NCBI GenBank assembly: GCA_965198235.1
Contig: OZ240248.1
Coordinates: 1,632,001 to 1,696,000 of the forward strand
DNA length: 64,000 bases
Direction of reading: 5' to 3'
From: Candidatus Poribacteria bacterium
Lineage (GTDB): Bacteria > Poribacteria > WGA-4E > WGA-3G
How positions within the stretch are numbered: the first letter of the stretch is position 1; every line of letters begins with the position of its first letter. The notes beneath the pieces were generated by a model, which saw only the letters and a list, made by a program, of their open reading frames with translations, had not been told where the DNA came from and did not search any database. Position numbers and translations under genes: made by a program. This document shows, one piece after another, positions 5,410 through 54,240 of this stretch.

Positions 5410-5512
5410 TTTCCTAACTATGGCCTCCTGTTCTGCTCTCCATTACATTACGAGCAGGTTTCTGGTTAAGTCGTGATTCTTCTGGGGTTTGTGCGTTTCT
5501 GGACCTTTAAAA
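5410..5512 (-). repeat. Dispersed leader/hairpin element, copy A (ends at argD ATG)
   Basis: Nearly gap-free match to 9075..9177; stem CTGCTC/GAGCAG around 13-nt loop GTAATGTAATGGA. Confidence 0.8.
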
Positions 5513-5632
5513 CAGGACTTACGCAAATTGCGCGAAAAGCAATATATTTCCCCAAAAGAGTCGTTGTTTCAGTGATTTAACCCCCTCAATCTCCCTTATC
5601 AGGGAACTTTAAGAGGAGGTGCGTAAGTCCTA
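5513..5632. mobile_element. MITE with AGGACTTACGCA terminal inverted repeats and 5-bp TSD
   Basis: AGGACTTACGCA (5514-5525) ... TGCGTAAGTCCT (5620-5631); TAAAA on both flanks (5508-5512, 5633-5637). Confidence 0.8.
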
Positions 5633-5637
5633 TAAAA

Positions 5638-6771
5638 TCACCAATTCGTGTAGGCACCGTCATCGCGTTGATAACCGTAGGGTGGTCCATACCCTTGCGT
5701 TGAGACATCGGTAAGGGCATCTTCGTTAAATTCGATGCCGAGTCCAGGTGCTTCAGGCGGTAGGAGATACCCTGATTCAAACGGTACTTGCACCGGGAAC
5801 ACGTCGGTTAGCGTGGACATCGGGGCACGTGGGAGTTCCTGCACACCGACGAGTGGCGATGACAAACAGAGATGCAGACACGCTGCAGCGGATACAGGTC
5901 CCAAGGGGTTGTGTGGTGCCATATAGATATAATGCGTTTCGCACCATCCGGCGATTTTACGTGCCTCCGTTAACCCACCAGCGATGCAAAGGTCAACGCG
6001 GCAGTAATCGATGAGGTCTTCCTCGATGACTTCTCGGAACGTCCATTTGCTGTCAAATTGTTCGCCAACGGCAATCGGCACCGAGGTCTGCTGCCGAATC
6101 CGTCTGAGACTGGCAGGGTTTTCAGCCCGAAGCGGATCCTCGATGAAAAACGGATTGTAGGGTGCAACCTTGTTGCAGAAATCGAGGCTATCCGCCGGAT
6201 CGAGGCGGGTGTGCACGTCAACGAGTATTTCAATATCGTCACCTAATGCCTGACGGACGGCTTGTACTTGTTTAAGCCCGTTCTGGATGGCGCGTTTGGG
6301 TTCAAACGTCCCTGTATCTGTGCCGTCAGCCAAGCCCCATCGGACGAATTTCCAACCCGCTGCGTGAGTTTGTTTGCAATTCTCAACAAGTGCATCAATC
6401 GTGCCGCCGCCGTTGTGAGGATAGCAGACGACCTTGTCTCTGGTGCGTCCTCCTAAAAGTTCATAGACGGGAACGTTCAGTGCCTTTCCTTTGATGTCCC
6501 AGAGTGCGATGTCTACAGCACTCACTGCCGCGGATTGGACGACACCTCCGGGGAAAAAGCCGCCGCGGAACATCACTTGCCATAGGTGTTCAATTCGGAA
6601 CGGATCTGCGCCGATGAGAAACGGTTCAAATGAGCGAACGACTTCGGCTAAGGCGAGTGCGCGACGGCGAAGTCCGCCCTCACCGACACCGTAGATACCC
6701 GCATCGGTTTCGACCTTCACAAAAAAATAGCCGTCCGCTGAAGCAAACGATTTAACTTTGGTAATTTTCAT
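5638..6771 (-). CDS. Mandelate racemase/muconate lactonizing enzyme family (galactonate dehydratase-like)
   Basis: VETDAGIYGVGE, DIALWDIKGK, VDVH, FIEDP, AVGE, APHNP; start at MKITKV. Confidence 0.9.
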   Translation of the reverse strand: MKITKVKSFASADGYFFVKVETDAGIYGVGEGGLRRRALALAEVVRSFEPFLIGADPFRIEHLWQVMFRGGFFPGGVVQSAAVSAVDIALWDIKGKALNVPVYELLGGRTRDKVVCYPHNGGGTIDALVENCKQTHAAGWKFVRWGLADGTDTGTFEPKRAIQNGLKQVQAVRQALGDDIEILVDVHTRLDPADSLDFCNKVAPYNPFFIEDPLRAENPASLRRIRQQTSVPIAVGEQFDSKWTFREVIEEDLIDYCRVDLCIAGGLTEARKIAGWCETHYIYMAPHNPLGPVSAAACLHLCLSSPLVGVQELPRAPMSTLTDVFPVQVPFESGYLLPPEAPGLGIEFNEDALTDVSTQGYGPPYGYQRDDGAYTNW

Positions 6772-6980
6772 TTTTTTGACGATTAAGTTTTCGCTCCTTT
6801 TCGGCGTAGCTTGCAAGTCAAAACTTGCTGTTAAAGGTTCCGTTGTCGAAAACGGGTTTTCGCCAATTTTCAACAACATATTTTTAATGATTAGGTTTTC
6901 GCTCCGTTTTTTCTCCCCCTTCCCAGTAACGGGCGGGGACCCCTATCAACAACGGGTTTTCGGCGAGTTTCAACAATATT
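6772..6980. repeat. Two tandem ~108-bp units with conserved ends and different hairpin cores
   Basis: GATTA(A/G)GTTTTCGCTCC...AACGGGTTTTCG..TTTCAACAA at 6781 and 6889. Confidence 0.7.
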
Positions 6981-7014
6981 GGTTATCATCAAATTAATGG
7001 CACGCAACGAGTTG

Positions 7015-7821
7015 CTACACAGCATCCAATGTTGGCGTGTTGTCCTGACAGTGAACGGGCCGGAAGAGCGTCTGACGTTTGAACGGCATCTCTTCAACGT
7101 GTTTCGGATGCGGTTCCCACTTATGCCATTTATTTCCAACTGTATTGTAGCAGTGGAAAATTGCAACTCGATCGATCTCTTCATCTGTCCACTTTGCACC
7201 GGTATGTGTGATTGCCTCTGTGAAGATAAGCACGGACCCGGCAGGACAGGTATAATCCTCCCAGAGTGGGGAATCACGGTTCTCTGTTGACTGCGGTGCA
7301 GGAAACGCCCCTTTATGACTACCCGTGAGGAACATCGTTCCACCACCACCTGTCTGAACGGGATTGAGCTCCCAGACGACGCGCGTCAATCCACTGTGTG
7401 CACTATCGTGATGTAAATGATAGGTGTGCGAGTTGCCGGGAAAGTTGAGCATCCCACGTCCGCCGTGTGGCTGGAAGTTGTCATGTCCATTCGGACGAAT
7501 AGTTAGGAATGTGCCTTCCAATCGGAATCCGTAGCAGTTCTCGTTGGCATAGCCCGAAGTAAGGAATTCGTTCATGAATCCGAGCACAACCGGATGATCG
7601 GTTAGCGACTCAAGGGGACCGCCGATGGGAGAGCGGTGGTGTTCAGGGATTAACTCCGGTTCCTGTTTGAGCTGATAACAGAACTCGCGCATCTCTTTAA
7701 CCTCGGTTTCGCTGAGAAGGCTTGGAATCAGGAGCCATCCACGGGTGTCAAAAAGATAGCGTTGCTCTTCCGTAAGTGGGATCGGTGATAGATTGTCAGC
7801 ATTCGTCGTAGGATTCGGCAT
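7015..7821 (-). CDS. Phytanoyl-CoA dioxygenase (PhyH) family protein
   Basis: EEQRYLFDTRGWL, GGTMFLTGSHK, PAGSVLIFTEAITH. Confidence 0.85.
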   Translation of the reverse strand: MPNPTTNADNLSPIPLTEEQRYLFDTRGWLLIPSLLSETEVKEMREFCYQLKQEPELIPEHHRSPIGGPLESLTDHPVVLGFMNEFLTSGYANENCYGFRLEGTFLTIRPNGHDNFQPHGGRGMLNFPGNSHTYHLHHDSAHSGLTRVVWELNPVQTGGGGTMFLTGSHKGAFPAPQSTENRDSPLWEDYTCPAGSVLIFTEAITHTGAKWTDEEIDRVAIFHCYNTVGNKWHKWEPHPKHVEEMPFKRQTLFRPVHCQDNTPTLDAV

Positions 7822-7916: not shown

Positions 7917-9074
7917 CTATTTGTATAAGCGTTCGTCTTCTAATGATAGCCAGGTGCCGTAATCGCGAGGCATATCCCTTATTTCACCCAAGCCGGCTTC
8001 AGCACGCCACCGCAGCAACGGATGCTCTCGGTTTTTCTGGGGCAACTCCACACGTGTGCCGTAGACAGCGGACTCAAAGATTGCCATTAGAATTTCAATG
8101 ACATGGCGACCCTCTTCGCCGTTAGATTCGTGTTCACGGTCCTCGTCTAATGCGTTTACATACTCTTCAACGAAGCAGTAATCGTCGGCATTTGCGCCTT
8201 TATCTGCGTCAAAATGCTCTGGATAGATAGACGCGAGTGCTTCCCACTGGTCGTGTGTGCCATCAGGGACGAAATGTGGTGTAGGTAGCCACCACGAACC
8301 TTTCAATTCCGACCAGAAGAGCCTGCCTTCAGTGCCGTAGAGTTCCATGACGTACGCATCGGTATCCACCTTCGGGAATCGATGCTGAATGAGAGTACCG
8401 GTGACGTTTCCGTCGAATTGGAGCGTCGCTGTGGTATATTCACCTGCGACTGTGCCCATGCCAGCCGGGGAGGGGAGCACATCGTCGTGTCCGATGGCGC
8501 GTCCGCCTGTCGTCGCTTGTGTCATGACGCTCCGGCAGTGCCCACCGAAACGCAGCATGTTGTTAATGACATGCGTTCCGATGTTCATTAACCCATAACC
8601 GGCGTAGTAGCCTTTTCCACTGGCGTAGATGTAACGCAGGTCGCCTATTTTTCCTTCGTTTAGGGCTTTGGCGACTGCCTGCATCGACGGACTCGTACGT
8701 CGTTGATGATGTACGGCGACGCGAGCGTTTTTCTCTTTCGCCTTTGCCAGCACCTCATCCGCTTGAGTGAGGTTAATACAGAGCGGTTTCTCTACCTCAA
8801 TGTTCACGCTGTGTTCAAGGACGCGCATGCAAAGCGGATAGTGTGCCTCTGTTGCTGTGGGAATTGCGACAATGTCGGGAGATGTCTGTTGGATCATCTC
8901 GTCTAAATCGGTGAAATGTGCGGAGACGTTCACGATATCGCCGAGGGTCTCTAACCGCTCTTGGACGAGGTCGCAAAGTGCTACGATCTCGGTGCGCGGA
9001 TGTGCGTGATATGCTTTTGCTGCCGAGGTGCCGCGACTCCGGCACCCCAATATAGCGACGCGGTAAGTTTTCAT
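7917..9074 (-). CDS. Gfo/Idh/MocA family oxidoreductase
   Basis: RVAILGCRSRG, VEKP, GTH; start at MKTYRV. Confidence 0.9.
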   Translation of the reverse strand: MKTYRVAILGCRSRGTSAAKAYHAHPRTEIVALCDLVQERLETLGDIVNVSAHFTDLDEMIQQTSPDIVAIPTATEAHYPLCMRVLEHSVNIEVEKPLCINLTQADEVLAKAKEKNARVAVHHQRRTSPSMQAVAKALNEGKIGDLRYIYASGKGYYAGYGLMNIGTHVINNMLRFGGHCRSVMTQATTGGRAIGHDDVLPSPAGMGTVAGEYTTATLQFDGNVTGTLIQHRFPKVDTDAYVMELYGTEGRLFWSELKGSWWLPTPHFVPDGTHDQWEALASIYPEHFDADKGANADDYCFVEEYVNALDEDREHESNGEEGRHVIEILMAIFESAVYGTRVELPQKNREHPLLRWRAEAGLGEIRDMPRDYGTWLSLEDERLYK

Positions 9075-9177
9075 TTTTCTAACTATGGGCTCCTGGACTG
9101 CGCTCCATTCCATTACGCGCAGGTTTTTGATTAATTCGTGACGCTTCTGCGGATTTGTACGTTTCTGTACTTTAAAG
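9075..9177 (-). repeat. Dispersed leader/hairpin element, copy B
   Basis: Stem CTGCGC/GCGCAG, loop GTAATGGAATGGA, 23-nt tail to the ATG. Confidence 0.8.
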
Positions 9178-9207
9178 TCTCGGACTCGTTCTGATATTAA
9201 TGTGGTA

Positions 9208-9236
9208 ATGTTAACCTATTTGGGATTTGCTGTCAA
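9208..9236 (-). promoter_or_regulatory. Sigma70-type promoter for the oxidoreductase
   Basis: TTGACA-N17-TAACAT on the minus strand. Confidence 0.55.
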
Positions 9237-9334
9237 GTTTTTTATCAGATGAACCAGAGGTATTCGGTTTTCAGCGGTCAGCCGCCGGCTTTGCCATATA
9301 GTAAAGTCTGCAATGACAAGGGACCTAAAATTGC

Positions 9335-10384
9335 CTATTCTACTGTGGCATTCCACTGCTTGGCACGTTTCATGAATACCGACGGATCCAGCAACCATTC
9401 GCCATAACCGATGTTCTTGTTATTTGTCAGATAGTCAAGTTTTTCATCAATGCAGGCGGCGAGATCGGCATCTTCGAGGGCGAGCGTAAATCCGCCATAC
9501 TCTATCTGCTCATCAAAGGCAGTGACGACAAGCTCACCGTGTGAGACGTGCGCGGCATCCTGACTACCAATCTCACCCCGCGCAATCGCATCAATACGAC
9601 CCGCGACGAGTGCCTCAAGCAACTCCGACTCCCCCAAGACATCACCGAGATAGATTATCTGTGGCAGGGTTTCCGTAGGTGGATAGAGATGCTGCCTACC
9701 CACGAGGTTCGGAGAGGCACCGGCGGCTGTAATCGTGTAAGCCGCTGTGCCATCGGCAACTACAGTCTTATCACGAGTCTCAACCCGGGTGCCCGATAGA
9801 AGGACCCCGTCAGCATCAACGAACCCGGTAAGTTGAAGTAAACGCGCCTCGCCCGTCGTGCTGGGAAGGGCACCAACGCGAACTTCACTGTTAAGGGCTG
9901 CATGCGTGGAGAGACGTTCCGCGTCTTCAGCACGAACCAAAAGCGTTTGCCGAAACCGGATATGTCCGGATGTAAAGGTGACGACGGGCATCCCTGTTGC
10001 ATCTTGCCTCCGGGATTCCAGAATAGTAATGCCGCCTCCGATAATATCATACGTGGGTTCAGCGGACTTTAGCCAGATACTATCCCATTCGGCGATAGCC
10101 GTTCGAGAGAACGTCAAACCCGCCCCTTCCATCGCTTCAAGTGCAGTCAATAGATCCGCTTCGTAACCGAGATGTGTATTGAACGCAGCCGAGACAGGAT
10201 CTTTGTTAGCACTGTAACTAATGGGTGCGAAATGGGCATAAAAGCCGACCTTCAACACGCGGGTTCCGTCCGTACAAGTACCCGTGGCTGTTCCCTTTTG
10301 TTGCGTAACGATCTGTCGCGCCTTCTCGCAACCTGAAAGCATCGCTGTTGTGAATATGAGTAAGATAAAAAGTCGAAAACGCAT
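9335..10384 (-). CDS. Solute-binding lipoprotein (SBP family 3-like)
   Basis: Lipobox MLSGC, LKVGFYAHFAPISY, GYEADLL, GRIDAIARG; AGGAGG before the ATG at 10384; no permease adjacent. Confidence 0.8.
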   Translation of the reverse strand: MRFRLFILLIFTTAMLSGCEKARQIVTQQKGTATGTCTDGTRVLKVGFYAHFAPISYSANKDPVSAAFNTHLGYEADLLTALEAMEGAGLTFSRTAIAEWDSIWLKSAEPTYDIIGGGITILESRRQDATGMPVVTFTSGHIRFRQTLLVRAEDAERLSTHAALNSEVRVGALPSTTGEARLLQLTGFVDADGVLLSGTRVETRDKTVVADGTAAYTITAAGASPNLVGRQHLYPPTETLPQIIYLGDVLGESELLEALVAGRIDAIARGEIGSQDAAHVSHGELVVTAFDEQIEYGGFTLALEDADLAACIDEKLDYLTNNKNIGYGEWLLDPSVFMKRAKQWNATVE

Positions 10385-11139: not shown

Positions 11140-11517
11140 TTAGGATTTGTCGGGATTCATTTTCAGGTTGGTTTTCGGTTTCCATTCGCGGATAAGTTCA
11201 GTTTCTAATAACACCGTTTCTTCCGCGTCCTCTGTGAATTCTACCGAAAATTGGACAATTGACCTGAACATTCGGAGTTGTGAATGGAGTCCGTCATTCT
11301 GTGCGTTTGAGTGGTGCTGCAACAACCGTCTTCGCACACAGGTTGTGGATTCCCCAACATAGAGACAGTCGTTCCGCCCCTCGGTGCCGGTTTTCCGCCA
11401 CAGGACATATACACCACTCCGTCCAGTCGGCAGTTGCAGGATCTCCTCGCGCGTGAAGGGACGGAGGTTACGTTTGAGTTGATACTGTAAGACGTAGGGG
11501 GTAACACTGTCAGACAT
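11140..11517 (-). CDS. GIY-YIG nuclease family protein
   Basis: SGVY...LYVGES...RRRLLQH...E..LIREWKPKTN. Confidence 0.8.
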   Translation of the reverse strand: MSDSVTPYVLQYQLKRNLRPFTREEILQLPTGRSGVYVLWRKTGTEGRNDCLYVGESTTCVRRRLLQHHSNAQNDGLHSQLRMFRSIVQFSVEFTEDAEETVLLETELIREWKPKTNLKMNPDKS

Positions 11518-11580
11518 AGGATACTTTCCACTGTCAGAATCAGGATTTACAGGATTGACGGATTTTCAGGATTATTACTT

Positions 11581-14379
11581 TTAAATATCAGCTGTCATCT
11601 GTTCTGGTGCCCGCATTGACTGTGAGATATACTGCCACTGAATCGCGAGGTTATTATAGTGTGCCGCGTTTTCTGCCTCGCCGCGGCGTTCATAGTAGGT
11701 ATACAATATCCCTGCCAAACGCTTTGCGGATTCGTAATCGCGCATCGCACGCGCAATGGTGGTACATCCCGAAATGCCGCCGCTCCTTTCTTCACCAGAT
11801 AGATGCCACACCATTCGCAGGCACCCCTCCCATGCTGTCATCTCTTCGCTGTTTGCATATGCCTCATATTCCTCACTCTGCAACAGTCGGACTCTACCCC
11901 GTGCGGCGATGAGGACCTTGTCGTGCATAGCGGCGACATCTACATCTTGTGCTGTTGCTAATACCTGAGCGTCTCCGAAATTACCTTCCATGTAACCGTG
12001 TTGCTTCAGCCATGTCAAGCAGAACTGACTCTCTGGATCTAATTCACCGGTCTCTTTTTCATGGTAGGCGGTGATCTCGTTGTTGATGTGCATGAGTGCC
12101 TCGCGTATCGGCACAATCTCACCGCTGATTCGTGTTACCTTACTATAGCGAGAATAGACCTCCATCCCCGGTCCGATGGCGGCTTGTGCTAAATCAACAG
12201 GTCTGATATTGGTGATGCGTGTGAGTCTGTCAAGCGCGGGTGGCATTTCTTTTTTCAGTTCTTGTAGGAACTCATTACGGGTTATGGCAGGCACATCCTC
12301 AGAACGCGGGCGGCAGACTAAAAGAATAGAAGATGCAAGTGCATTGGATCCAATTCCTCGATGTCTATTCACTAATTCAGTTCGCATGGGCCAGGTACCT
12401 ACTATCTGAAAACCGGCGTTCACGACTGCCGTTAGCATCGTCTCCCAACCGGTAGAGGTTTTCTTTCCATCCTGTTCCTTTTGCTGTTTATAGGCATAGA
12501 AAATAGAGGTAGGGAACCTGTCAGAACAGTGTTGTCGAATCCGCAGTAGTGTCTTGCCAAGTAATTCCTCAAAATGTTGTGCGGGATCTTCAAACCGGGG
12601 ACTGGCGGTTATTTCCTCATCCTTCGGAGTCATCATACTCCCAAATAGTTCTGGGTGGGTGTCTCGTAACAAAGGTCTCAACCAAACATAGAAGAAGTCG
12701 GAGAGATCCGCGTAGCCGATGTTATCGTAGTAGGGTGGATCAGTGACAATGACAGGTGCATCCATAGCATGAATAGTGGTGGCGGCATCTGCCTGATATG
12801 CTGTACCATCGTTTACTTCAGTGGGAAAACGCTCAACGACCTTGGCAACCCATTCGCCTTGGGATGTCCAGTTCCTTGTCGAACTAGAAAAAAGATTCGC
12901 TTCGGCAAAATCCCACACCATTGGAAGAGCAGGCAAGGAAAAAGCGTGGCAAATTTTGTGCCAAGTACTTGACCATGTCGCGGATGTACAACCGCTGTCA
13001 GCAATTCTGCCAATAACAAAGGTGAGATAGGTGGAAACAGCGGAAGCGTAGACGCTATCGCCTCCATCGAGCATTATAGCGTGATGAACATCTTTCAGCA
13101 AATCACTGAATGTAGTTAGAGTTGTGAGCTGCCTTTCTGTATACAGTTGATGCCAGTGGGAGAATCCATAATTTTGCAGACTGATTCCCAAAGCTTTTAC
13201 CGGTATTTTTCCTCTAGGCCTCCATTTAGGTTCGGCAAGTAGGGAGGCCTCAACGTGTTCATCAGTAGGGGAGATATACAAACGTCTTTGGTGGCCCTCA
13301 GCGATTATCGCTGTCATCATTTTTCCCATCTTTCCCACTTTGGCCTGTTCGCGCACATAAGACAATTTGACCGAACTCCCACAAGCAAAACAATAGGCAC
13401 CGCTGCGCCCTACGGTACCTCGCTTTGGGACCCCGTCTATATGTTTTTGCACTGTCCAGGAGATGGTGTTCGTTTCCCTGTCAACGACTGGTTTTGTCCA
13501 GTATTTGTTTCTTTCTTTAGTGGACAGTTGGAAGGTTTTCATCAGCGGCATCTGTAGTCCACAGGCCGGGTTGGAACATGGCACTGTGCGTGCCCAGAGC
13601 CACGCGATTACGGTGGCAGAAGTGCCGTCTGGTAGCTTTACTTTTGGGTAGAGGTGCCCAATTCGCTTATGTGCTTCCTCGCGCATCCATGCGCCATAGT
13701 AGCGGATGTCATTTGCTAAACCAGCAGTCCCTTTCCACGGCACGCGCGTTCGCCTTCGACCCGTGCCAGGGAACATACCCAACGGATCGGCATCGGGATT
13801 GACGGGGTTCTGATTGTGGAACTTCGGGGGCAGTTCAATCATCGCTTTGGTGAGTAGGACGGGCAGCGGATTCAGATCGGAGGCGCGGGCGCGCAATCCT
13901 AAGCGTTGTGCCTCAAGTGGAATGGAACCGCCCCCGCAAAACGGGTCGTAGACAGCGGGGCAGTGGTCGCGGAGGTATTGTAGAACCGCCTCTGGATCGT
14001 TCTGGAATCTCGTGCGAAAGGTAGTGATATCTTCCCCGTTGTTGCGGGCGACGGAGAACGCAATTTCATAACGTGCCTCCGCTAAGAGATTTTCATCGTT
14101 GCTGTCTTTCCAGATCACGAGTCGTTTGATGAGGTTGTGGAGACGGTTGTGTTCGGCGTTCTGTTCGGGTTCGGTTGGGAATTCGTCTTTGCATTCGGAG
14201 GGATCGTCCACCATGCTGGCGAAAATGACAGCGCGACATGCGGCCAAAGGACGGCGTGCCCAGTACAAGTGAAGTGTGGACGGATGGCCATGCCTGATGG
14301 ACTTTTCGCGTGTTGATTCACGGTTAATGGCTTGGAGGGGTATGTTGACCTCAATGAGTTTTTTTCGGTAATTGGACAT
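11581..14379 (-). CDS. DUF1156-domain adenine-specific DNA methyltransferase
   Basis: LHLYWARRPLAACRA, YDPFCGGGSIPLEA (motif I), TDPPY (motif IV), Zn-ribbon-like inserts CSNPAC and CFAC. Confidence 0.9.
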   Translation of the reverse strand: MSNYRKKLIEVNIPLQAINRESTREKSIRHGHPSTLHLYWARRPLAACRAVIFASMVDDPSECKDEFPTEPEQNAEHNRLHNLIKRLVIWKDSNDENLLAEARYEIAFSVARNNGEDITTFRTRFQNDPEAVLQYLRDHCPAVYDPFCGGGSIPLEAQRLGLRARASDLNPLPVLLTKAMIELPPKFHNQNPVNPDADPLGMFPGTGRRRTRVPWKGTAGLANDIRYYGAWMREEAHKRIGHLYPKVKLPDGTSATVIAWLWARTVPCSNPACGLQMPLMKTFQLSTKERNKYWTKPVVDRETNTISWTVQKHIDGVPKRGTVGRSGAYCFACGSSVKLSYVREQAKVGKMGKMMTAIIAEGHQRRLYISPTDEHVEASLLAEPKWRPRGKIPVKALGISLQNYGFSHWHQLYTERQLTTLTTFSDLLKDVHHAIMLDGGDSVYASAVSTYLTFVIGRIADSGCTSATWSSTWHKICHAFSLPALPMVWDFAEANLFSSSTRNWTSQGEWVAKVVERFPTEVNDGTAYQADAATTIHAMDAPVIVTDPPYYDNIGYADLSDFFYVWLRPLLRDTHPELFGSMMTPKDEEITASPRFEDPAQHFEELLGKTLLRIRQHCSDRFPTSIFYAYKQQKEQDGKKTSTGWETMLTAVVNAGFQIVGTWPMRTELVNRHRGIGSNALASSILLVCRPRSEDVPAITRNEFLQELKKEMPPALDRLTRITNIRPVDLAQAAIGPGMEVYSRYSKVTRISGEIVPIREALMHINNEITAYHEKETGELDPESQFCLTWLKQHGYMEGNFGDAQVLATAQDVDVAAMHDKVLIAARGRVRLLQSEEYEAYANSEEMTAWEGCLRMVWHLSGEERSGGISGCTTIARAMRDYESAKRLAGILYTYYERRGEAENAAHYNNLAIQWQYISQSMRAPEQMTADI

Positions 14380-14387
14380 AATATCGA

Positions 14388-14612
14388 TTAGTCAATCAGT
14401 TTTTGTGCGAAGGCTTGGATGCTACGTGCGTGAATTGACTGGATATAAAGATCCTTAAGTCGTTCCAGATCGTCTATATTTTCAAGTGCAGGCCTTAAGG
14501 CATCCACAAGTTCTGTCGAGAACTTCGTTTTAAGAACCACCGAGATGTGGCTGATAGTCGTTTCTTTGGTAATTCTCTCGTGTAGATGTTGGTAAGCCTT
14601 AGATTCTTGCAT
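14388..14612 (-). CDS. Stand-alone paralogue of the Rpn C-terminal domain (orphan RpnS-like)
   Basis: MQESKAYQ...NIDDLERLKDL...QKLID parallels MRESKGYQ...NIDDLERLKEL...QKLID; GAGGGA precedes the ATG. Confidence 0.7.
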   Translation of the reverse strand: MQESKAYQHLHERITKETTISHISVVLKTKFSTELVDALRPALENIDDLERLKDLYIQSIHARSIQAFAQKLID

Positions 14613-14630
14613 GTGTCCCTCGGGTATGCG

Positions 14631-15482
14631 TCAGTCAATCAGTTTTTGTGTGAAGGTTTCGATATTCGGCACCCGAGGTGCTGCGAGAAGGAGTTCCTTC
14701 AGCCGTTCCAAATCATCAATGTTTTGGAGCATAGGCGTTAAGGCACGCACCGCCTCCGTGTGAAACTGCTGTTCAAGCAGCGCGATGATGTGCTCGATAG
14801 TATTCTCTCTCAGCATGAGTTGGTAACCTTTAGATTCTCGCATGAGTTCCTCCGGTATGCGTCTTTTGAAAAGTTCGGGGTCATATACGATACTCCCAAA
14901 AATATAGAGGGCGTAAAGTAAATTTGCTTGTGTTTCTTGATCTACAGACGTTGCGCGCGTCGCATCAATACACGTTTGTACCCAACGATCTGAGTCTATG
15001 CCTGTAGGCGGTTTCATGAGCGGTGTGAAGGGTAGTATGCCTGGGGTCTGCGTCTCTAAAACCGCTTGTCCCTCTATCTCAATGAGCCGGATGACTTTAT
15101 AGTGGAGCGTGTATGTGTAACCGTTCCACTGATATTCATATCGTCCGGTGTCATTTCTTCCAGCATCTGGATGGAAATAGATGACGTTGGAGTAGACGGG
15201 CAACTGGTGTTCACCGATGAGGTGTCCGTGATAGGCTGCGTTTCGTGCCCACATCGGGCTGCGCGTGCTACTGCGGAGCTGGAATTCAACGTGCAAGATC
15301 GCTTCACCACCGGCGACGCGGATCCGTTTTGTGGTATCGGTGCGTTGTGCGATAATGCGCTGTTGTTCTGTATCCAGGTTTTCAAGGACTTCCACATCCG
15401 CCACGCCGAGTACGAATCGTGAGAGGTCGGTGGCATGATCCGTGAAGAGGTCCTTGGTCATGTTGTCGTAGTTTTGTGCCAT
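14631..15482 (-). CDS. Rpn family (recombination-promoting nuclease / putative transposase) PD-(D/E)xK protein
   Basis: YDNMTKDLF, RTD...ILHVEFQ, PVYSNVIYF, ILPFTPLM; start at MAQNYD. Confidence 0.85.
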   Translation of the reverse strand: MAQNYDNMTKDLFTDHATDLSRFVLGVADVEVLENLDTEQQRIIAQRTDTTKRIRVAGGEAILHVEFQLRSSTRSPMWARNAAYHGHLIGEHQLPVYSNVIYFHPDAGRNDTGRYEYQWNGYTYTLHYKVIRLIEIEGQAVLETQTPGILPFTPLMKPPTGIDSDRWVQTCIDATRATSVDQETQANLLYALYIFGSIVYDPELFKRRIPEELMRESKGYQLMLRENTIEHIIALLEQQFHTEAVRALTPMLQNIDDLERLKELLLAAPRVPNIETFTQKLID

Positions 15483-15488
15483 GGGTAT

Positions 15489-15518
15489 AGTGTAACCCAA
15501 AAAGTGAAGAAATGTCAA
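15489..15518 (-). promoter_or_regulatory. Promoter for a probably leaderless rpn transcript
   Basis: TTGACA-N18-TACACT, then only 6 nt to the ATG; no SD. Confidence 0.55.
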
Positions 15519-15572
15519 GCAGATTTGAAGTGGCACAAACTAACAGTTTATGCTACAAAAACTACAGATTTT

Positions 15573-18500
15573 TTAGTCGCTCTTGAATTCGGCGTTGAGG
15601 TGTTTGCTGTTTTGCTTGACAGCACGGGTGGTGTTTTCGGAAAAGCCGTCTGATTTGTTGGCAGTAATGGTAATTTCAATTTTCACATTTCCGCCATCTG
15701 CTTGTAGGGTGCGGGCAATCTCGTCTTGGATCATGTCAATCTCATCACCGAAAGGCAGTTCTAACTGCAAGGCTTTGGTAACAACGACGTGCGTAGGTCC
15801 CTTTGTTGGCGGGGGTTCGACCACAACGCCGGTTGGGTCGTCTCCCGTTTGCTTTTCTGTGTCTGGTGCTGATTCGGGAGCGTCCGATTTCTTCTGTTTT
15901 TCTTTTTCCTCCTTGAGGAGTTTTGCCATCTCAGGATTTATGAGGACAGCCGCGCTACCTTCAACCACTCGAAGCCCGCCGATCTGTTCTTCAAAACGGA
16001 AGTTGCGATAGTCGTCCCCCTCATAAGCACTGGCGTATCCGAAAGAGCCTGCCTGTACACCGTCTCTAAGGCACGTCGCCAAGACGTTTCGGTCCCTCAG
16101 TCGTGGCATGTAGACGTTTTGTGCCATGAGTTCCGAGAGCGTATCTAAGCCAATGTGCTCTTGATAGGTGTCGCTGCTCCAGATGTATTGCTGCAATTTT
16201 CCGGCAAAGATTTCAGGATCTATTTTTGTAACAATTGCGTCATCGTCAATGAATTTATCACGGAGCCGCCGTATAATTCTGCCATCTTCGGGTTTTGTGT
16301 CAGCGATAGAGAAGTCGTAGGCACTGTTTTGGGGATCTGATTGCGAAGGCGTGAGTGCCCATCGGTATGCCTTGAAGAGTGCAGTCGTTACGGCATCTTC
16401 AGCGGATTCAAGGTTTTCCGTCGTCTGATCTAACCTCGCGCCTTCGAGGTTGGTGAGCGCGCCGTGTAGGACATTTCCGTTCATGATGGAATCCCAAGAG
16501 AGGTAGTTTTTGACGAGATTTTTGAGGTCACGGATATCGTCTCGCCGTGCTGCGATGAAGAGGAGGGTGTTCCTGAAGGTGCGGGGTCTTTCATCGTCTG
16601 TGCTATATGTAAGCATTTTAAGCGCGGTTTCGCGTGCGATATCACTCTCTTTTTCACGGCTTGGCAGAGAGGACTGTGGATGAAGAATGATGTACTGAAT
16701 AGTTTGGGAATCCTGAATGGGATCTGGAGTCGTGGGACAGACCTTCACGTTTGAGGTGCTTTGAACTGTTCTTTCCAAGCGTGAAACGATTTCAGCGTAG
16801 ATATCTTCCTCGGTATATTCGGCTGCGCGGTCTGTAGCGACTTTATTGAGGTTTTCTTGGGTATGGAAGTAGTATCTATCGTCAAGGTTATAGAGGAAGT
16901 AGAGGTTACCGGTCATTCTACTGAGTGCGTCATTATACACAGAAACACCCTGTCCGGGTTCAACGACACCGAGGTGGATTTGCTGTTGAGATATACCTTT
17001 GACCGCACGTCCTGTTGCACTACCGAGGAATATCGTGCGAGCGATACGCCGCGCCGCGCTGCCCACCTCAATGAAGCTTTGAGAGTTTCGATCAATCTGG
17101 TCAGTGCGGGAACCGTGGCTGTCTACCTCTTGGACGACGGGGGCCCAATTTCCACCGGATCTTGCAAGCAGTCTGGTAAATTCATCAGCGAGTGCGGGAT
17201 CGTCAAGTGTGAGGTTCGCTGGCGTTATCAGCAGAGAGGGATCCTGTTCTTGAAACAGACGGGAAATGCAGGTCGCCATTATTCGGAGAACACTGCGGGT
17301 CCGCTGAAATCCGGGGATAACCGACCAATCCTCAAAGAGCCGATCAAATATCTCTGGGTGGATCGGATAGCAATCTTTCATCCGTTTCAGGTAGTCTTGA
17401 TTGCTAATGTTACTCGGATATTCGCTTCGGGAGTTCTGATACATCTTTCGGAACGCTTCACAGGTCAGGTCGCGTTCCGTTTCGTCAATTATGGGACCGA
17501 ACAATCGCCTGCGGACAACTTCATAAGCGTTATCCACTTCTAAGGGAATAGAAACGGCATCAACCCTTTCGAGGATAGATTCGAGGGTATCAAGGGCAGT
17601 CATTCCACCTTCACCACCTGCTTCGACCTGTGCTTCGGGAAGTGTTGCAACGAGTGTAACGTTCTGAGATCTGTTTACGGATTCTGTGAGGGTTTGAAAG
17701 AAGGTGTAGATACTCTCCTGTGTGACACCTTGGACATTACGGACATAAGCGACGAGTTCATCTATTAAGATGACAGAAGGGCCGACGTGTTCAAAGAGTG
17801 CGTCCAATTGCTTTCCGCCGGGGGCGATGCCTTCACGTGCGGCATCCCGTATGATGTTATAGGCATCTTGTCCGCCGAGTTGATTCGCCATCATCCCCCA
17901 GAGTGTGTTGAGCGGGTCGCCTTGTTTTGTTTCATCTGCATCAGTCGTAGAGAGGTAGGTGCCGACCAGAACAGCGACGTTGGCATTAAGGGGAGTGTTG
18001 GGGTCCCACGCCGCGTCTTGCAGGATGTCCGCTATTTCTTCTCGGAGCCGCTGGTATTCACCCTCTGCTGGCAGTTCTTTTAGCGCGTGAATTCCGGTAA
18101 CAAGATGATAGAGGGCAATGAGACTGTGGGTTTTCCCGCCCCCGAAACCTGTCTTGAGTTGGATGACTGGATCGCTATCTTTGCCGCCAAGTCTTTTGAG
18201 GGTATTCACCAACAATTGGCGAAGCCCAGGGGTGATGTATGTCTGGTTAAAAAAGATGTCGGTTTCGCCGTATTCTGGTGTTTTCGCGTTTCCTTCAAAA
18301 ACTTCTTGAAGGTCGGCGGCGAATTCCGATTTTCGGAAGGAGCCTTCAATGACATCGGTATTGGGGCGTATGACATCACGCCATGACTTGAGGTCAGCTG
18401 CCTTTCTACGCGGTAGTTTTGGTTTCGTGTCTACAGTTGGTGCCGCGCGGGTGAGTAATTTGTCGCGGATGACTTCAACTGCTCGCTTCTGTTCAGGCGC

Positions 18501-18854: not shown

Positions 18855-18881
18855 GTGTTTAAAGCTCCATTTATTCCGCGG

Positions 18882-20542: not shown

Positions 20543-20697
20543 GGTTTGTATCCCCACGAACCGGTTGGTCAGTTCGTCGTAAAATCATCAATTAGAACGT
20601 TTTCAGATTGCGCTGTGTTAAACCCCAAGGGATCGCAAGCAAATAAAATGTGATAGTGGCGAAATTACTTAACATATCCTACTCAAAAGTGAATTAA

Positions 20698-28334: not shown

Positions 28335-28342
28335 TTTTTTCT

Positions 28343-37460: not shown

Positions 37461-37551
37461 GACTCAGCAGTAAGCGCAACCAACGGGCGCGCTGGATATA
37501 CGCCGAGGATCGTTATTCATTCAACCCACCTCACCGATCCGCAAGGGAAAA

Positions 37552-40787: not shown

Positions 40788-41762
40788 CTATATCGTCAAG
40801 GACAGGAACAGTTCCTCAAGTGACATTTCAGTCGTGTGCATTTCAAGCAGTTGCCATCCACGTTTGACGATGGTTGCTGCTACTTCTGAACGGATGTCGG
40901 TCGCCAGTGTATAGTGAAGGTGGAACGTCGCCGTGTCATCCGTATCAGTATCGATCTGATCGACTTGAATCACGTTTGGTATGTCGTGGAGTTCGGTTGA
41001 TATATCGTCTGCTGGTGCTCCTGCTACCTCAAGTGCAAGAATGGAGGAGGCAACTTGCAAATTCTCTGTATTACGGGTAGATCCATCGCTCTGTCTGGGG
41101 GCGGCACGTCCATCTTTCAACAGAACATCCCCTGTAATTTTACCACGACTGATGATAATCAACCGTTCGCATGTGAGACTGGCTTCGGGTAAGATGTGGG
41201 TGCTGAACAGGATAGTCCGTTCCTTGCCGAGTGCTTTGATTAGTTCTCGAATTTCGACAATCTGCCGTGGATCCAATCCGGAGGTGGGTTCATCGAGAAT
41301 TAAAACGTCAGGCTCGTGAATGAGTGCTTGTGCTAAGCCGACGCGTTGTCGAAAACCGCGCGATAGTTGTCCGATAATCTGATGCCGGCGTTCGGTGAGA
41401 CCGCATGCCTCAATGGCATTATCCAGTTGCCCTTTGATGCTATTACGCGGCACACTGCGGATCTTTGCCATGTACATCAAGTACTTCGTCACCGTCATTT
41501 CCGGATAGAGCGGAACGTTTTCGGGGAGGTAACCGATGCGTTTCCGAACCTCTCGCGATTCTTTGAAAACATCATATCCGGCGACGGTAACGCGTCCGCT
41601 ACTCGCCGGCATAAAACAGGTGAGGATTCGCATTGTCGTTGTTTTTCCTGCTCCATTAGGACCGAGGAAGCCGACAATTTGTCCCTTGTCTACTTGGAAG
41701 GAGATGCCCTTGAGTGCTTGGAAGGGACCGTAGTTTTTGGTGATATTTTGAACTTCAATCAT
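40788..41762 (-). CDS. ABC-2 type transporter ATP-binding protein (GldA-like)
   Basis: GPNGAGKTT, LSRGFRQR, LDEP. Confidence 0.92.
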   Translation of the reverse strand: MIEVQNITKNYGPFQALKGISFQVDKGQIVGFLGPNGAGKTTTMRILTCFMPASSGRVTVAGYDVFKESREVRKRIGYLPENVPLYPEMTVTKYLMYMAKIRSVPRNSIKGQLDNAIEACGLTERRHQIIGQLSRGFRQRVGLAQALIHEPDVLILDEPTSGLDPRQIVEIRELIKALGKERTILFSTHILPEASLTCERLIIISRGKITGDVLLKDGRAAPRQSDGSTRNTENLQVASSILALEVAGAPADDISTELHDIPNVIQVDQIDTDTDDTATFHLHYTLATDIRSEVAATIVKRGWQLLEMHTTEMSLEELFLSLTI

Positions 41763-41968
41763 TTTTTAATTATTGGGCTTCTGGTCTGCCTTCCAAATGT
41801 AAAGCATTCTCACTGCGAAGCAAAATTATGCCGTTTAAGGAAACCTAATTTCATTTCAGGCAGGTTTTCGGTAATCCTAACGCCTCCATCACCGCTCTCT
41901 GTCAAGAATTAATCAGAAACCATCGCGAAACGTAGTGGAGCAGTGCCCAGATTTAATCGTTAAAAAAT
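41763..41968. repeat. Back-to-back copies F (minus, expanded loop) and E (plus) of the hairpin element
   Basis: F: CTGCCT...AGGCAG plus 23-nt tail to the ATG at 41762; E: CATCGC-GAAACGTAGTGGA-GCAGTG. Confidence 0.7.
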
Positions 41969-41990
41969 CGTTCGTTAAGCGGGGCGCGGT

Positions 41991-42890
41991 TCACACCTCA
42001 TCAATAGAAGTTTGTAAGTTCCGAGGAATATTGAAGTTTAGATCTCGGTCTCTGCCCAATAGATAAGGATTGTTATCCGGATTGACTGCTGCTGATTCAG
42101 CGAGGACATCCGGTAAGTTGACCGGCACGGACTTCACGTCAACTCTATCGGGATATACCAGGACCTGTCGCCACATCATCGGATAACAGATAATGCCAGA
42201 GGAGACGATACACAGCATACCTTGCTCTCTGAAGACGCGATTGAGATGCAGGTGTCCACAGAAAAATGCCAAAATTTGTCTTTCAAAGGGGGCGGTAATT
42301 TCGAGAACCTCTGCGGAGTTGGCAACTCTTGAACCAATCCCCTGGAATTCGACACTTGGAAACGGGAGTTGATGTGAGAAAATGAAAACCTCTTGGTTGT
42401 AATCACGCGCCCTTTTCAATTCTCGCTCTGTCCACGCCAGTTGGTTAGTGCTGATATACCCGTGTGTGAGGTCTTCGGGCACCTCCTGCGAATCGAGGAG
42501 GAGAAACCGGATATTTTCGTGCACAAAACTGACAGAGCCCATGCCGTTGGTACTGAAGCGTGCCAAATAATCGTCTTTAGAACCGGTTTCCGGATGCAAA
42601 TCGTGGTTGCCGGGGATGTAATAGCAAGGAGCATTCATACGCTGCCCGAGTTGTTGCGCACCGTCAAGTGTGGCTTCGTATTCTTCTGCGAACATGTCAA
42701 AACTGTTACCACCGCACACGATATCCCCGCCATGAATTACAAAGGCAGGCTCAAACGCGTTCAGTTGTTCAACTAATTTTTCATAGAGTGCAAGACTATT
42801 TTTTTGCTGTTGAAGTCCGCTTGCGAAGTTCTTCGGCGCGTTTAAATACAGATGTGTGTCCGTAATAAAAGCAAATTTAAAAAGTATCAT
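41991..42890 (-). CDS. Calcineurin-like metallophosphoesterase (CpdA-like)
   Basis: DTH, GGD, GNHD, HQ, GHLH. Confidence 0.9.
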   Translation of the reverse strand: MILFKFAFITDTHLYLNAPKNFASGLQQQKNSLALYEKLVEQLNAFEPAFVIHGGDIVCGGNSFDMFAEEYEATLDGAQQLGQRMNAPCYYIPGNHDLHPETGSKDDYLARFSTNGMGSVSFVHENIRFLLLDSQEVPEDLTHGYISTNQLAWTERELKRARDYNQEVFIFSHQLPFPSVEFQGIGSRVANSAEVLEITAPFERQILAFFCGHLHLNRVFREQGMLCIVSSGIICYPMMWRQVLVYPDRVDVKSVPVNLPDVLAESAAVNPDNNPYLLGRDRDLNFNIPRNLQTSIDEV

Positions 42891-51201: not shown

Positions 51202-51230
51202 ATTATAAGCGACATCTTTACAGATGTCAA
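51202..51230 (-). promoter_or_regulatory. Consensus sigma70 promoter with overlapping palindromic operator
   Basis: TTGACA-N17-TATAAT; GACATCT-ttac-AGATGTC at 51211-51228. Confidence 0.7.
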
Positions 51231-52524: not shown

Positions 52525-52563
52525 GTAGGCACGATTTTATAGAACAGGATAAATCGTGCCTAC
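52525..52563. repeat. GTAG-type REP palindrome
   Basis: GTAGGCACGATTT-N13-AAATCGTGCCTAC. Confidence 0.75.
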
Positions 52564-52586
52564 GGAAAATAAGAATGATCCTATAA

Positions 52587-52715
52587 GGTGGAGACAGAGC
52601 TGGTGAACACGCACAGTACGATAATATCGTCGTTGTCACGCCTGACTTCGACCCTACACCTGTTGAACCCCAACGGAAGTTGGCATTAACGTGGGGGAAG
52701 CTCAAAATACAATGA
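52587..52715 (+). pseudogene. C-terminal remnant of a secreted tail-motif protein
   Basis: GGDRAGEHAQYDNIVVVTPDFDPTPVEPQRKLALTWGKLKIQ*; in-frame TAA immediately upstream. Confidence 0.7.
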
Positions 52716-53722
52716 GACCTCAAAAACCGTTAGCAATAGGCATCATCGGTGCTGGCAGTATGGGAAGACATCATCACAGAGCGGTAACCGATTACGGTGC
52801 GCGTGTCGTTGCAGTCCATGATGTGCGGCTTGAAGCAGCGCGCGAACTCGCAGCACATTCTGAAGAAGCGCTTGCCACTACTGCATTGGATGCTTTTTTC
52901 GGCGTAGATATGGACGGAGTGGTTATCACGACACCACCCCCTGTCCGTCTTGAACCAATCCAGATGGCGTGCGATCGTGAGATTCCTGTGATGGTTGAAA
53001 AACCACCTGCCTTGAACATGGCTGAAGGTAGAAAGTGCCTTGCATGCATTGAGAAAGCGGATGTCATCGCTGCTGTCGGGTTCCAACTGCGCTATCATCC
53101 GCTCTATGAACGGCTGAAAGCGTTAATCGCTTCGGAACCGGTCCACCTCGTCCGGACGGTGTGCACTGTTGATTATTACCTGAGTTTCCGGATGTCGCCT
53201 TGGTTTCTGCAATATGAGATAAGCGGTGGTCCCTTGCCAGAGCAGGCGGTGCATGTGTTGGATTGCGCACGGTTCGTTATGGGAAACCCGAAACCTGTGC
53301 AGGCACATGCGTTTGCTATCAAGAACATGGCGTTGGACCGAACCGAATTCGATGCCGAAAATGCCATCCAGATGACCTATCAATTGGACAACGGTGTCTT
53401 CGGAACACACATGAATCACTGCGGTACCGAGGGATTTAGTTTTGAGGTTGAAGTCGTCGGACCACATTTGCGATTACAGGCGAATATGACGGATAACGCT
53501 ATTCGTGGATACCTTAACGGTGAAATCGTCAATAAACCGGCGGTTTCAGAAAATAGTCTGGGTTTAGACAAATCCGGAGCATGGTTGCGCGCTATTGAAA
53601 CAGGGGACAGGACGCTGATTCGCTCGCCGTTCGCTGATGCAATTGAGACACTTGCCCTGATTGATGCTGCGGTCCAGAGCCGCAACACCGGCAGATTTAT
53701 CAACGTGGAGGAACTGTCATGA
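52712..53722 (+). CDS. Gfo/Idh/MocA family oxidoreductase
   Basis: GIIGAGSMG, VEKP, GFQLRY, HVLD; start at MRPQKP. Confidence 0.9.
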   Translation: MRPQKPLAIGIIGAGSMGRHHHRAVTDYGARVVAVHDVRLEAARELAAHSEEALATTALDAFFGVDMDGVVITTPPPVRLEPIQMACDREIPVMVEKPPALNMAEGRKCLACIEKADVIAAVGFQLRYHPLYERLKALIASEPVHLVRTVCTVDYYLSFRMSPWFLQYEISGGPLPEQAVHVLDCARFVMGNPKPVQAHAFAIKNMALDRTEFDAENAIQMTYQLDNGVFGTHMNHCGTEGFSFEVEVVGPHLRLQANMTDNAIRGYLNGEIVNKPAVSENSLGLDKSGAWLRAIETGDRTLIRSPFADAIETLALIDAAVQSRNTGRFINVEELS

Positions 53723-54051
53723 TAGATTGGATTTATTTTCGGAATAGCTGAAACTCGTGTAAAAAAGTGCAAGAGTTTCTTGACGAACACAAATTACAAC
53801 CAGAGAGTCGGACTGATGCGCGAAAAGAGAAAATGGATGCAACAGCGGTATGGGATTTAATGGGCAGTGCGGAGCGAATTGTTGTTGCGAAAGGGAGGCG
53901 CGTGGAAACCTTCGTACCAACCGAAGACATGCAGGAATCAATCTTAAAAGCGGTGATAGGACGAAGCGGCAGCCTACGTGCACCGACAATACAAAGCGGG
54001 AATGTCTTCCTTGTTGGTTTCAACGAGACACTCTATAAAACAAATTTTTAA
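53719..54051 (+). CDS. ArsC/Spx-like thioredoxin-fold selenoprotein (UGA at codon 11)
   Basis: GGAGG-N7-ATG; MIDWIYFRNS-U-NSCKK (UxxC), continuing into GRSGSLRAPT...VGFN. Confidence 0.85.
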
Positions 54052-54139
54052 CGATTCGTAAGGCGTTAAATCAAGCGATGGGTTCCATAAGGGTTTTCGC
54101 TAAAGGGTCGCCTGCGCCTTTGTTGCAGGCTGCCATCAC

Positions 54140-54240
54140 TTTCTGACTTAGAAACCGTACATCTCCTCGGTCTCGTCGGAATTAACCGAAAACCGTTGTG
54201 AAACGTAGTGGAACAACGCCCAGGAGCCAATAAATTAAAA
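54140..54240 (+). repeat. Dispersed leader/hairpin element, copy D
   Basis: Stem CGTTGT/ACAACG, loop GAAACGTAGTGGA, 22-nt tail to the ATG at 54241. Confidence 0.75.

Follow-up and report, generated by a model that had tools for sequence, protein, structure and literature searches.

What is a short hairpin doing in a bacterial genome when it recurs among unrelated genes and ends, time after time, on a start codon? The question is raised by a 64-kb stretch of a Candidatus Poribacteria genome (GenBank assembly GCA_965198235.1, contig OZ240248.1, positions 1,632,001–1,696,000; hereafter the window), in which an earlier note, made from the sequence alone, had described a dispersed element with a co-varying hairpin and proposed that it was either an unrecognised leader RNA or a mobile hairpin repeat domesticated as a translation-initiation cassette. 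The data presented here suggest a mixture of the two rather than either alone. With a probability of roughly 0.5, we read the element as a duplicative intergenic module of sponge-symbiont Poribacteria, resembling a MITE (miniature inverted-repeat transposable element). Its sense arm would be transcribed into a 5′ leader that joins a stem-loop to an A-rich ribosome landing pad with no Shine–Dalgarno (SD) sequence nearby, and its reversed arms would be passengers or supply 3′ hairpins.

A covarying hairpin of Candidatus Poribacteria

The repeat unit spans ~65 nucleotides (nt) and consists of a 5′ block (GAATTAACCRRAAAC), a 6-bp stem enclosing a 13-nt loop, and a 21–23-nt A/U-rich tail that ends in TTAAAAA; alignment of the copies shows that the conserved unit also takes in ~12 nt 5′ of the AAC (GAATTAACCRR). 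The hairpin itself, 25 nt in length, is made up of a 6-bp helix (P1), a 3 × 3 purine-rich internal loop in which GNA lies opposite GGA, a 2-bp helix (P2) and a GNA triloop, and is followed by a tail for which no structure is predicted.

Reading of the sequence bears out the stems, loops and 21–23-nt tails of all five copies that the earlier note had placed against an ATG. Copy A (5407–5472, minus strand, 72.7 bits; hairpin 5433–5457, CTGCTC/GAGCAG) leads through a 23-nt tail into the argD ATG at 5409, and copy B (9072–9137, minus strand, 80.8 bits; hairpin 9098–9122, CTGCGC/GCGCAG) through a tail of the same length into that of a Gfo/Idh/MocA oxidoreductase at 9074. Copy C (37402–37465, minus strand, 62.3 bits; hairpin 37426–37450, CTGCCC/GGGCAG) has a 21-nt tail and precedes the ATG of an SDR oxidoreductase at 37404; the 22-nt tail of copy D (54179–54243, plus strand, 80.4 bits; hairpin 54194–54218, CGTTGT/ACAACG) meets that of a NAD-binding, epimerase-like protein at 54241. 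Copy F (41760–41872, minus strand), with P1 formed by 41858–41863 and 41786–41791 (CTGCCT/AGGCAG) and a 23-nt tail ahead of an ABC ATPase ATG at 41762, has a loop of 66 nt that carries a nested insert at its apex. Its divergent partner, copy E (41906–41971, plus strand, 73.6 bits; hairpin 41921–41945, five of six pairs), is followed by no open reading frame (ORF), and its tail faces the 3′ end of a convergent phosphodiesterase gene (stop at 41991). The genes after A, B, C, D and F were named from NCBIfam matches. When the window is scanned for a stem of 6 nt, a loop of 13 nt with TGGA at its end and a second strand, stems with all six pairs and a preceding AAC are found only at A–D, and covariance models yield E values of 1e-9 to 1e-16 for A–E with nothing comparable elsewhere in the window. 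Counts of RTGGA or of the tail pattern alone do not rise above chance in the window; only the composite that includes the stem does.

To sample the element more widely, genome contigs were searched with a 33-nt pattern in which AACC, the 13-nt loop consensus, the closing G and CAG were fixed and stem and tail were left free, so that the sample is biased by the fixed loop, the CAG and the required loop length. At least 103 stretches matched, and the counts of copies and loci given below rest on those matches listed; the pattern-selected copies and five from the window make up 105 unique copies, and the database loci, 95 in number, carry L-numbers. A further 24 copies, free of the pattern bias, were recovered by covariance model alone. 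Ninety-two of the at least 103 stretches are titled Candidatus or uncultured Poribacteria and derive from at least 31 assemblies (counted from contig names), and three come from a single metagenome-assembled genome labelled ‘uncultured bacterium’; the remaining eight belong to other taxa and have only one to four of the six stem pairs, as expected by chance. Among the 105 copies, six of six pairs form in 88, five in 15 and four in two. The element is specific to Candidatus Poribacteria, where it occurs in many species, and an intact stem is found in no other taxon among the matches listed, which makes it a clean marker of the phylum. A search of the window against Rfam 15 at the gathering score returned only tRNA-Gln and, at E values up to 5, gave no overlap with any copy; no description of the element was found in the titles and abstract openings listed by full-text searches on Poribacteria.

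Two structural claims had been made from the window copies alone, namely that the stems change sequence while keeping their pairing and that the loop centre co-varies, and both hold in the larger sample. In the structure alignment (103 copies, the two with four of six pairs having been dropped), 98.2% of paired cells can pair, against 70.7% in shuffles, none of 500 of which reaches the observed value, and 18–57% in slid controls. Changes on both sides are seen at five of the six P1 pairs and at the variable P2 pair; pair 17/39, for instance, is AU in 41 copies, UA in 38, GC in 11 and CG in 10. The loop-centre pair of the 105 copies is C–G in 58, U–A in 45 and U–G in two, and never C–A, of which ~25 cases would be expected under independence; the search pattern permitted any pyrimidine/purine combination at this position, C–A included. 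RNAalifold, on its own, returns exactly P1 and P2. The hairpin is under selection.

Inserts occur at the apex of the loop only and are of two recurrent types, one shared by copy F, L018 and L074 and the other by L015, L068 and L078. The latter three carry within the apical loop a palindrome, TGCAAGCC-TATAGA-GGCTTGCA, that is also found free in neighbouring intergenic DNA, which points to nested insertion of another repeat.

Other folds were considered and set aside. An outer helix between the 5′ block and the tail, an idea obtained by eye, is not predicted by RNAalifold; a loop–tail pseudoknot (UGG with CCA) was rejected by geometric reasoning, since one linker base would have to cross a 6-bp stem; and for the K-turn and the 11-nt receptor the strand order does not fit.

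Start codons, stop codons and paired arms

A start codon that opens an ORF of at least 60 codons stands 21–25 nt after the hairpin in 54 of the 105 copies, and at 22–23 nt in 48; if the interval is widened to 19–27 nt, 56 copies have one (53 ATG, 2 TTG, 1 GTG), and in an antisense control the distances are scattered. With gene calls based on ORFs and 12 copies whose flanks are too short to classify, the 93 testable copies divide into these 56, hereafter START copies, 27 whose tails run into a convergent gene's stop codon (STOP copies) and 10 others; the corresponding figures for the 24 model-only copies are 10, 6 and 5, with 3 untestable. The non-random orientation and distance anticipated from the window are thus recovered, sense arms being favoured about 2:1 (56 versus 27; p = 0.002 and 0.001), although not exclusively.

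That the abutting ATGs are true starts follows from the proteins: of 52 locus ORFs, 41 were submitted to Pfam (eleven 93-residue fragments being left out), and 34 of them match a family with alignments that begin at residue 1–20. The genes concerned are diverse, encoding NuoF, NuoK, RibH, TrpF, KsgA, AccC, sulfatases, sulfotransferases, PfkB, MoxR, an ECF sigma factor, AddA and RecD2, among others, and START tails are never truncated at the start codon. The tail therefore marks true start codons and can aid the annotation of Poribacteria genomes. Within the window it favours the ATG at 9074, and a tail-like relic the ATG at 6771, over the longer ORFs 7917–9113 and 5638–6879, whose starts at 9113 and 6879 are probably wrong.

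Immediately before the start codon the tail is rich in A at −1 to −5, with A at −3 in all 56 START copies and at −4 in 54. Adenine at −3 is reported as a positive determinant of initiation in SD-poor bacteria (PMC6847099). The organism uses ordinary SD sequences at other genes, and where the ATG is displaced by ~10 nt (L031/L096 and L087) a normal SD is present. As for the AGGAG of the tail, it lies 14–15 nt from the ATG, farther than a normal SD as the earlier note had said, but it is not a constant feature: CAGGAG or CAGAGG tails are found in 47 of 105 copies, and 32 have CAGATT tails devoid of SD-like sequence. An upstream ORF or N-terminal extension starting at the RUG of the loop was also considered and dropped; copies with 33 nt and copies with 34 nt from RUG to ATG are about equally frequent, leaving no constant frame.

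A GGA in the loop, followed 13–14 nt downstream by a second GGA in the 47 CAGGAG/CAGAGG tails, brings to mind CsrA-type proteins, which bind paired GGA motifs in a hairpin loop and near the ribosome site. The hairpin, with or without the downstream GGA, could accordingly be the site of a global RNA-binding regulator of that kind or of a nuclease, and its carriers one post-transcriptional regulon. This would be compatible with a leader function and agrees with the constancy of the loop sequence and of the purine-rich internal loop beside freely varying stems. We give it little credence, because the loop was fixed by the search pattern, so that its invariance is partly circular and is independently attested only by the window copies and the 24 model-only copies; moreover, the second GGA is missing from 32 of 105 tails, the loop GGA adjoins the stem rather than being centred in a small loop, and the downstream genes share no common theme.

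The exactness of the spacing, fixed to ±1 nt, would itself be explained if the element were a promoter for leaderless mRNAs, with RTGGA as a −35-like and TA..T(T/A) as a −10-like sequence, transcription beginning at the A of the ATG, and the hairpin a feature at the level of DNA. The predominance of ATG (53 of 56) and the 32 SD-free tails agree with such a promoter, as does the consensus-scan match TTGGAA-16-AATAAT in copy F, which ends 7 nt before the ATG. It is also in keeping with a remodelled copy (2342–2416, minus strand, 20.9 bits) that lies before the gene for tRNA-Gln (2262–2333), which needs a promoter and not a ribosome site; this copy retains 5′ block, loop and tail, but a ~22-nt insert displaces its 3′ stem strand and would destroy the supposed −35/−10 spacing. 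Further evidence makes the leaderless promoter very unlikely: with a −10 hexamer TANNNT required 6–7 nt before the start codon and a −35 hexamer 16–18 nt upstream, TANNNT is present at −11 in only 15 of 56 START copies and F alone passes the promoter-scan criteria, the best-conserved T is at −7, which with A at −10 and T at −11 falls one base short of a canonical hexamer, and RTGGAN agrees with TTGACA, by eye, at only two or three of six positions. The conserved CCAGGAG would fall in the promoter spacer, and variable stems that covary require single-strand pairing, which a duplex promoter leaves unexplained.

At orthologous START sites (L053/L071, L016/L094 and L035/L057) the core of the element is 97–98% identical, compared with 78–95% for the coding sequence and 57–79% for the upstream DNA, and in the more distant ortholog pairs L032/L054 and L058/L085 the stems differ with pairing kept. 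The sole pair of STOP orthologs is, at 86% identity, no better conserved than its flanks (83–89%), and stems are perfect in 53 of 56 START arms versus 19 of 27 STOP arms (p = 0.004). Presence of the element at orthologous genes differs between species in two cases, a TPR gene and addA; the addA leader of the window (28335–28400, minus strand; GTGAACCGAA ... GATAGCCAG-AAAAAAATG) is, from pairwise alignment, a probable decayed copy, an intact one standing against the same ATG in the addA ortholog of L079. Beyond −12, conservation is weak overall and splits into classes linked to stem and tail type, CTGC-type stems being accompanied by CCAGGAG tails and an AAC...GTCG-GAATT block, and CAYCGY and CACTGC stems by CCAGATTTAATAGTT tails and AACC...GGTT blocks.

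Of the 37 non-START copies with enough flank, 27 face a convergent ORF, 100 codons long or more, that terminates at −9 to +7 nt of the tail end; its stop is usually the TTA of TTAAAAA read on the other strand. Matches to Pfam families were obtained for 22 of these 27 ORFs, and several alignments (L18, URO-D, the AHAS small subunit) reach the C-terminus. The description of the element as a translation-initiation cassette therefore applies to sense arms only, about a third of the copies ending on a convergent gene's stop codon instead.

With the hairpin ~15–23 nt after such a stop and a short U-run behind it, the reversed arms might be intrinsic terminators of the upstream gene (hairpin followed by GUUUYYGGU), in which case a two-armed unit would be a terminator–promoter–leader cassette. 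A consensus scan that calls for a GC-rich stem, a loop of 3–8 nt and at least five T in the 8 nt after the stem finds no site at 41700–42050 (E/F) or at 9040–9340 (B); the loop has 13 nt and the U-run only 3–5 nt, and the conserved flanking GG and AA are left without explanation. A terminator would also be harmful between rplR and rpsE or inside nuo, where arms are found, and STOP arms are the less conserved class. On this evidence termination is a long shot.

Head-to-head pairs of arms, of which E/F is one, occur in 26 of the 95 loci, with 5′ ends ~30 or 55 nt apart (counted by eye). About ten combine a START with a STOP arm, four are STOP+STOP (L002, L015, L025 and L037) and one is START+START (L018). 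Partners differ in stem and loop (L048, L052, L063 and L081, for example), and many copies stand alone. The pair in L048 occupies the entire gap between two co-directional genes, one tail providing the stop of the upstream gene, which gains a single Phe relative to its ortholog in the window, and the other meeting the ATG; in the window ortholog the spacer is instead 53 nt long and carries an ordinary SD. The 146 nt that separate rplR (L18) from rpsE (S5) of the spc operon in L010 consist of one such pair, and within nuo a single arm parts nuoE from nuoF (L016/L094) and nuoJ from nuoK (L017). Genes at these three junctions, nuoE–nuoF, nuoJ–nuoK and rplR–rpsE, are co-transcribed in other bacteria.

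Such pairs raise the question of whether the element is simply a selfish, non-autonomous repeat of the REP/REPIN (repetitive extragenic palindrome) or MITE kind. A transposase encoded at some other site would then recognise its hairpin in single-stranded DNA, and the repeat would persist only at gene boundaries, where it does no harm, and affect expression only incidentally. Head-to-head pairs at fixed spacing keep the same geometry whatever the orientation of the flanking genes; also seen are subfamilies in which stems, tails and upstream blocks go together, palindromes nested at the loop apex in both insert types, tandem partial duplicates, a presence that varies between species at addA and the TPR gene, and copies inserted inside the spc and nuo operons. 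G–U pairs, moreover, are not enriched over A–C, and C-GAA-G mini-hairpins are very stable in DNA. A purely selfish repeat would nevertheless not be expected to leave orthologous START copies more conserved than the adjoining coding sequence, START arms more intact than STOP arms, a 2:1 bias of orientation and tails that are never truncated at start codons. Because paired arms differ in stem and loop, they cannot form a long hairpin of the REPIN type and do not look like the matched ends of one transposon; the two junctions examined (L048 against its window ortholog, representing one full unit) show no target-site duplication, and no transposase family is present among the 52 window ORFs. Taken together, we regard a purely selfish repeat as unlikely.

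The element as a probable leader module

The favoured reading, a mobile unit whose sense arm acts as a leader, starts from arms that point tail-first at coding sequence and are often joined head to head. An arm whose tail meets a gene start would be transcribed as the 5′ or intercistronic leader of that gene; its hairpin would fold in the RNA and cap or insulate the leader, ending just beyond the reach of an initiating ribosome, for which the single-stranded A-rich tail would be the landing pad, placing the abutting AUG without a nearby SD. Bringing its own translation start, the module could sit within operons without silencing the next gene. Stop-facing arms would be less constrained, either as passengers of the two-armed unit or as 3′ hairpins just past the stop. 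The structure and its covariation, the positions of the copies, their taxonomic range and their conservation at orthologous sites are established by the data; that RNA is made through the hairpin, where that RNA begins and how the arm would act on translation and on the stability of the mRNA are what we infer.

Transcription through the arm is plausible on three counts, the arms within the nuo and spc operons being one. As the earlier note had indicated, a promoter match is found upstream of copy B: a consensus scan places a sigma-70-like TTGACA-17-TAACAT at 9236–9208 on the minus strand, ~127 nt upstream of B's ATG, which agrees with consensus, by sequence match only, at 10 of 12 positions and, if used, would put copy B in a 5′ untranslated region. 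The third is a motif, AAC-N17-20-GTY, that stands at the expected place in 23 of 105 copies (shuffle mean 1.8; control offsets 0–6) and whose spacing resembles that of promoters of the extracytoplasmic function (ECF) type. Sigma-54 spacing, judged by eye, does not fit.

Two observations touch on the sigma factors of this lineage. In L077 (413–982, minus strand) a START copy stands directly before an ECF-type sigma factor gene (Sigma70_r2 and r4_2, 190 residues), which may be relevant if the upstream AAC...GTY sequences are ECF promoters. A perfect TTGACA-17-TATAAT at 51202–51230 (minus strand), upstream of an ORF starting at 51180, suggests that the organism uses canonical sigma-70 promoters as well.

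Several results weigh against the leader model. Stop-facing copies (27 of 93 testable, and 6 of 21 testable among those found by covariance model alone) keep loop, 5′ block and tail in a setting where a leader role is meaningless, and STOP+STOP pairs between convergent genes (L015, L025 and L037) retain the standard spacer, an arrangement closer in appearance to a mobile element's structural unit than to promoters. On the sense strand G–U pairs (10) are no commoner than A–C (12), where a constraint on RNA only would normally favour G–U, so that the counts do not settle which strand folds. The hairpin is thermodynamically ordinary, at −7 to −10 kcal/mol with z near 0, and single-sequence folding gives no signal (z of −0.3 to +0.7 for plain copies). 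At addA, judging from the decayed copy in the window, the canonical hairpin is apparently not indispensable; 82 of the 105 copies lack the strict ECF-like motif; and the model does not account for tails that abut the ATG to within 1–2 nt or meet stop codons to within a few bases. Finally, the sample is biased, with loop and CAG fixed by the pattern, and is drawn from the matches listed.

A variant that would bring both kinds of arm under one function, and that we consider speculative and on balance improbable, sees the element as a punctuation mark between cistrons. Arms would stand on either side of a coding sequence, a ribosome footprint away from it; the sense arm would provide structure-anchored, SD-independent ribosome entry and a 5′ cap, the reversed arm a 3′ cap past the stop codon, and the spacer a site of processing or re-initiation; recognised through its invariant loop by a dedicated factor, the module could colonise essential operons such as spc and nuo without polarity.

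Should the portable leader prove correct, it would represent a natural bacterial expression cassette, a copied unit that sets 5′ structure and ribosome entry for many housekeeping genes of an uncultivated phylum. It would bear on how translation starts are defined in SD-poor contexts, and on how small mobile repeats enter operons harmlessly.

Remnants, neighbouring repeats and known systems

Apart from the five ATG-abutting copies, the earlier note had listed copy E, the copy before tRNA-Gln and two short hairpins, all of which are present in the sequence. One of the latter, GCTT-GAAACGAAGTGGA-AAGC at 29571–29591 (minus strand), identified by reading of the sequence and covariance-model searches, lies ~45 nt ahead of a tail-like AAAATTAAAAAATG that ends in the ATG of an ABC ATPase at 29506; the other, CAGCTT-GGAACGAAGTGGA-AAGCGG at 1419–1443 (minus strand), belongs to the leader of an amidase gene and is followed by an SD-containing leader in place of the element's tail. 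Two relics without a hairpin (AGCGAAAAC, tail and ATG; 6768–6909, minus strand) lie within a ~108-nt tandem duplication, the second running into the true galactonate dehydratase start at 6771, and the NCBIfam match to the longer ORF begins at residue 37. The same duplication (6760–6990, minus strand), upstream of galactonate dehydratase, contains twice a near-palindrome, CGAAAACCCGTT(T/G)T(C/T)G, that may be an operator. A divergent match upstream of copy D (54040–54107, minus strand) is weak (14.9 bits, E value 2.3) and may be due to chance.

Other repeats accompany the element. A second repeated hairpin with a conserved loop, GCCTGC-GCCGTTGT-TGCAGGC, occurs in the window at 54108–54131 (plus strand) and ~60–95 nt upstream of the element in L009, L029, L046, L047, L049, L062, L072, L088 and L097; a T-rich run often follows, as in L088, and the hairpin has the look of a terminator or of a further repeat family upstream of solo arms. 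Inverted pairs of TGCGTAAGTCCT, ~80–118 nt apart, are found at 5514–5631 and 32017–32107 of the window, at 1046–1164 of L002 and at 476–594 of L091; with four matches in the window against 0.22 expected, they look like a separate small MITE-like intergenic repeat. The window also encodes FtsZ and FtsA, sulfatases and many Gfo/Idh/MocA proteins, in keeping with its origin from a poribacterium. A probable defence island at 11140–20557 (minus strand) comprises anti-phage-associated DUF1156 and DUF499 proteins, a spr1629-like repressor/antitoxin and a small GIY-YIG/UvrC-N-like ORF (11140–11517). The suggestion that an HUH/RAYT or GIY-YIG gene might be linked to the element finds no support in the window, where no HUH/RAYT gene is present and this one GIY-YIG-like ORF is not linked to any copy.

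How does the element compare with known systems? Correia repeat enclosed elements (CREE, or NEMIS) of Neisseria, whose ends are the matched terminal inverted repeats of a single element with a TA target duplication, are likewise small, dispersed, non-coding repeats with inverted ends that lie in intergenic DNA beside genes, and their presence, too, differs between related genomes. It is reported that promoters can arise at either or both ends of CREE, which are transcribed, bound by RNase III and able to alter the expression of their neighbours (PMC2649163). The arms of a Poribacteria pair, by contrast, differ in stem and loop, with no target duplication at the L048 junctions (one full unit), and each is a hairpin with a conserved 13-nt loop and a tail that meets start or stop codons within a few bases, features that CREE are not known to have. 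As to the matched terminal inverted repeats of a MITE, inverted arms of the same family are found in 26 of 95 loci (by eye), with differing stems and loops, and many arms are solo.

The REP, BIME (bacterial interspersed mosaic element) and REPIN families are short extragenic hairpins with variable paired stems and inverted doublets that reach the hundreds in a genome and probably fold as single strands. The Poribacteria element resembles REPs and REPINs in its frequent inverted doublets and in stems that vary with pairing kept. REPs, however, have a 5′ GTAG before the stem and mostly follow genes, and REPIN arms are near-identical and pair with each other; in Poribacteria the 5′ flank is RRAAAC, GTAG is absent from the flanks and found only inside some loops, paired arms are unlike each other, two thirds of the arms are directed at gene starts, and no RAYT (REP-associated tyrosine transposase) is present among the 52 window ORFs.

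The tail on its own recalls the A-rich, ‘Kozak-like’ start regions of SD-poor bacteria, which are also unstructured and A-rich before the AUG with A at −3 as a positive determinant (PMC6847099), but which are a statistical preference of individual genes and not a copied 65-nt unit with a hairpin at fixed distance. The hairpin, in turn, could protect its mRNA in a similar manner to leaders of the ompA type, and a placement just outside the ribosome footprint would fit such a role. In those 5′ stem-loops, as in 3′ REP stabilisers, a hairpin near the mRNA end could protect against RNases; to our knowledge, stabilising leaders are individual cases, and none belongs to a family whose conserved loop is common to many genes of a phylum.

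Integron attC sites, finally, are imperfect hairpins of conserved structure and variable sequence that start at the stop codon of the ORF before them, or overlap it, and are recognised in folded, single-stranded form. The Poribacteria element shares with them the conservation of hairpin structure over sequence and the contact with a stop codon. attC sites, however, lie in arrays of cassettes next to an integrase, behind accessory genes that have no promoter, whereas the copies of the Poribacteria element are dispersed and adjoin housekeeping genes, for the most part ahead of start codons.

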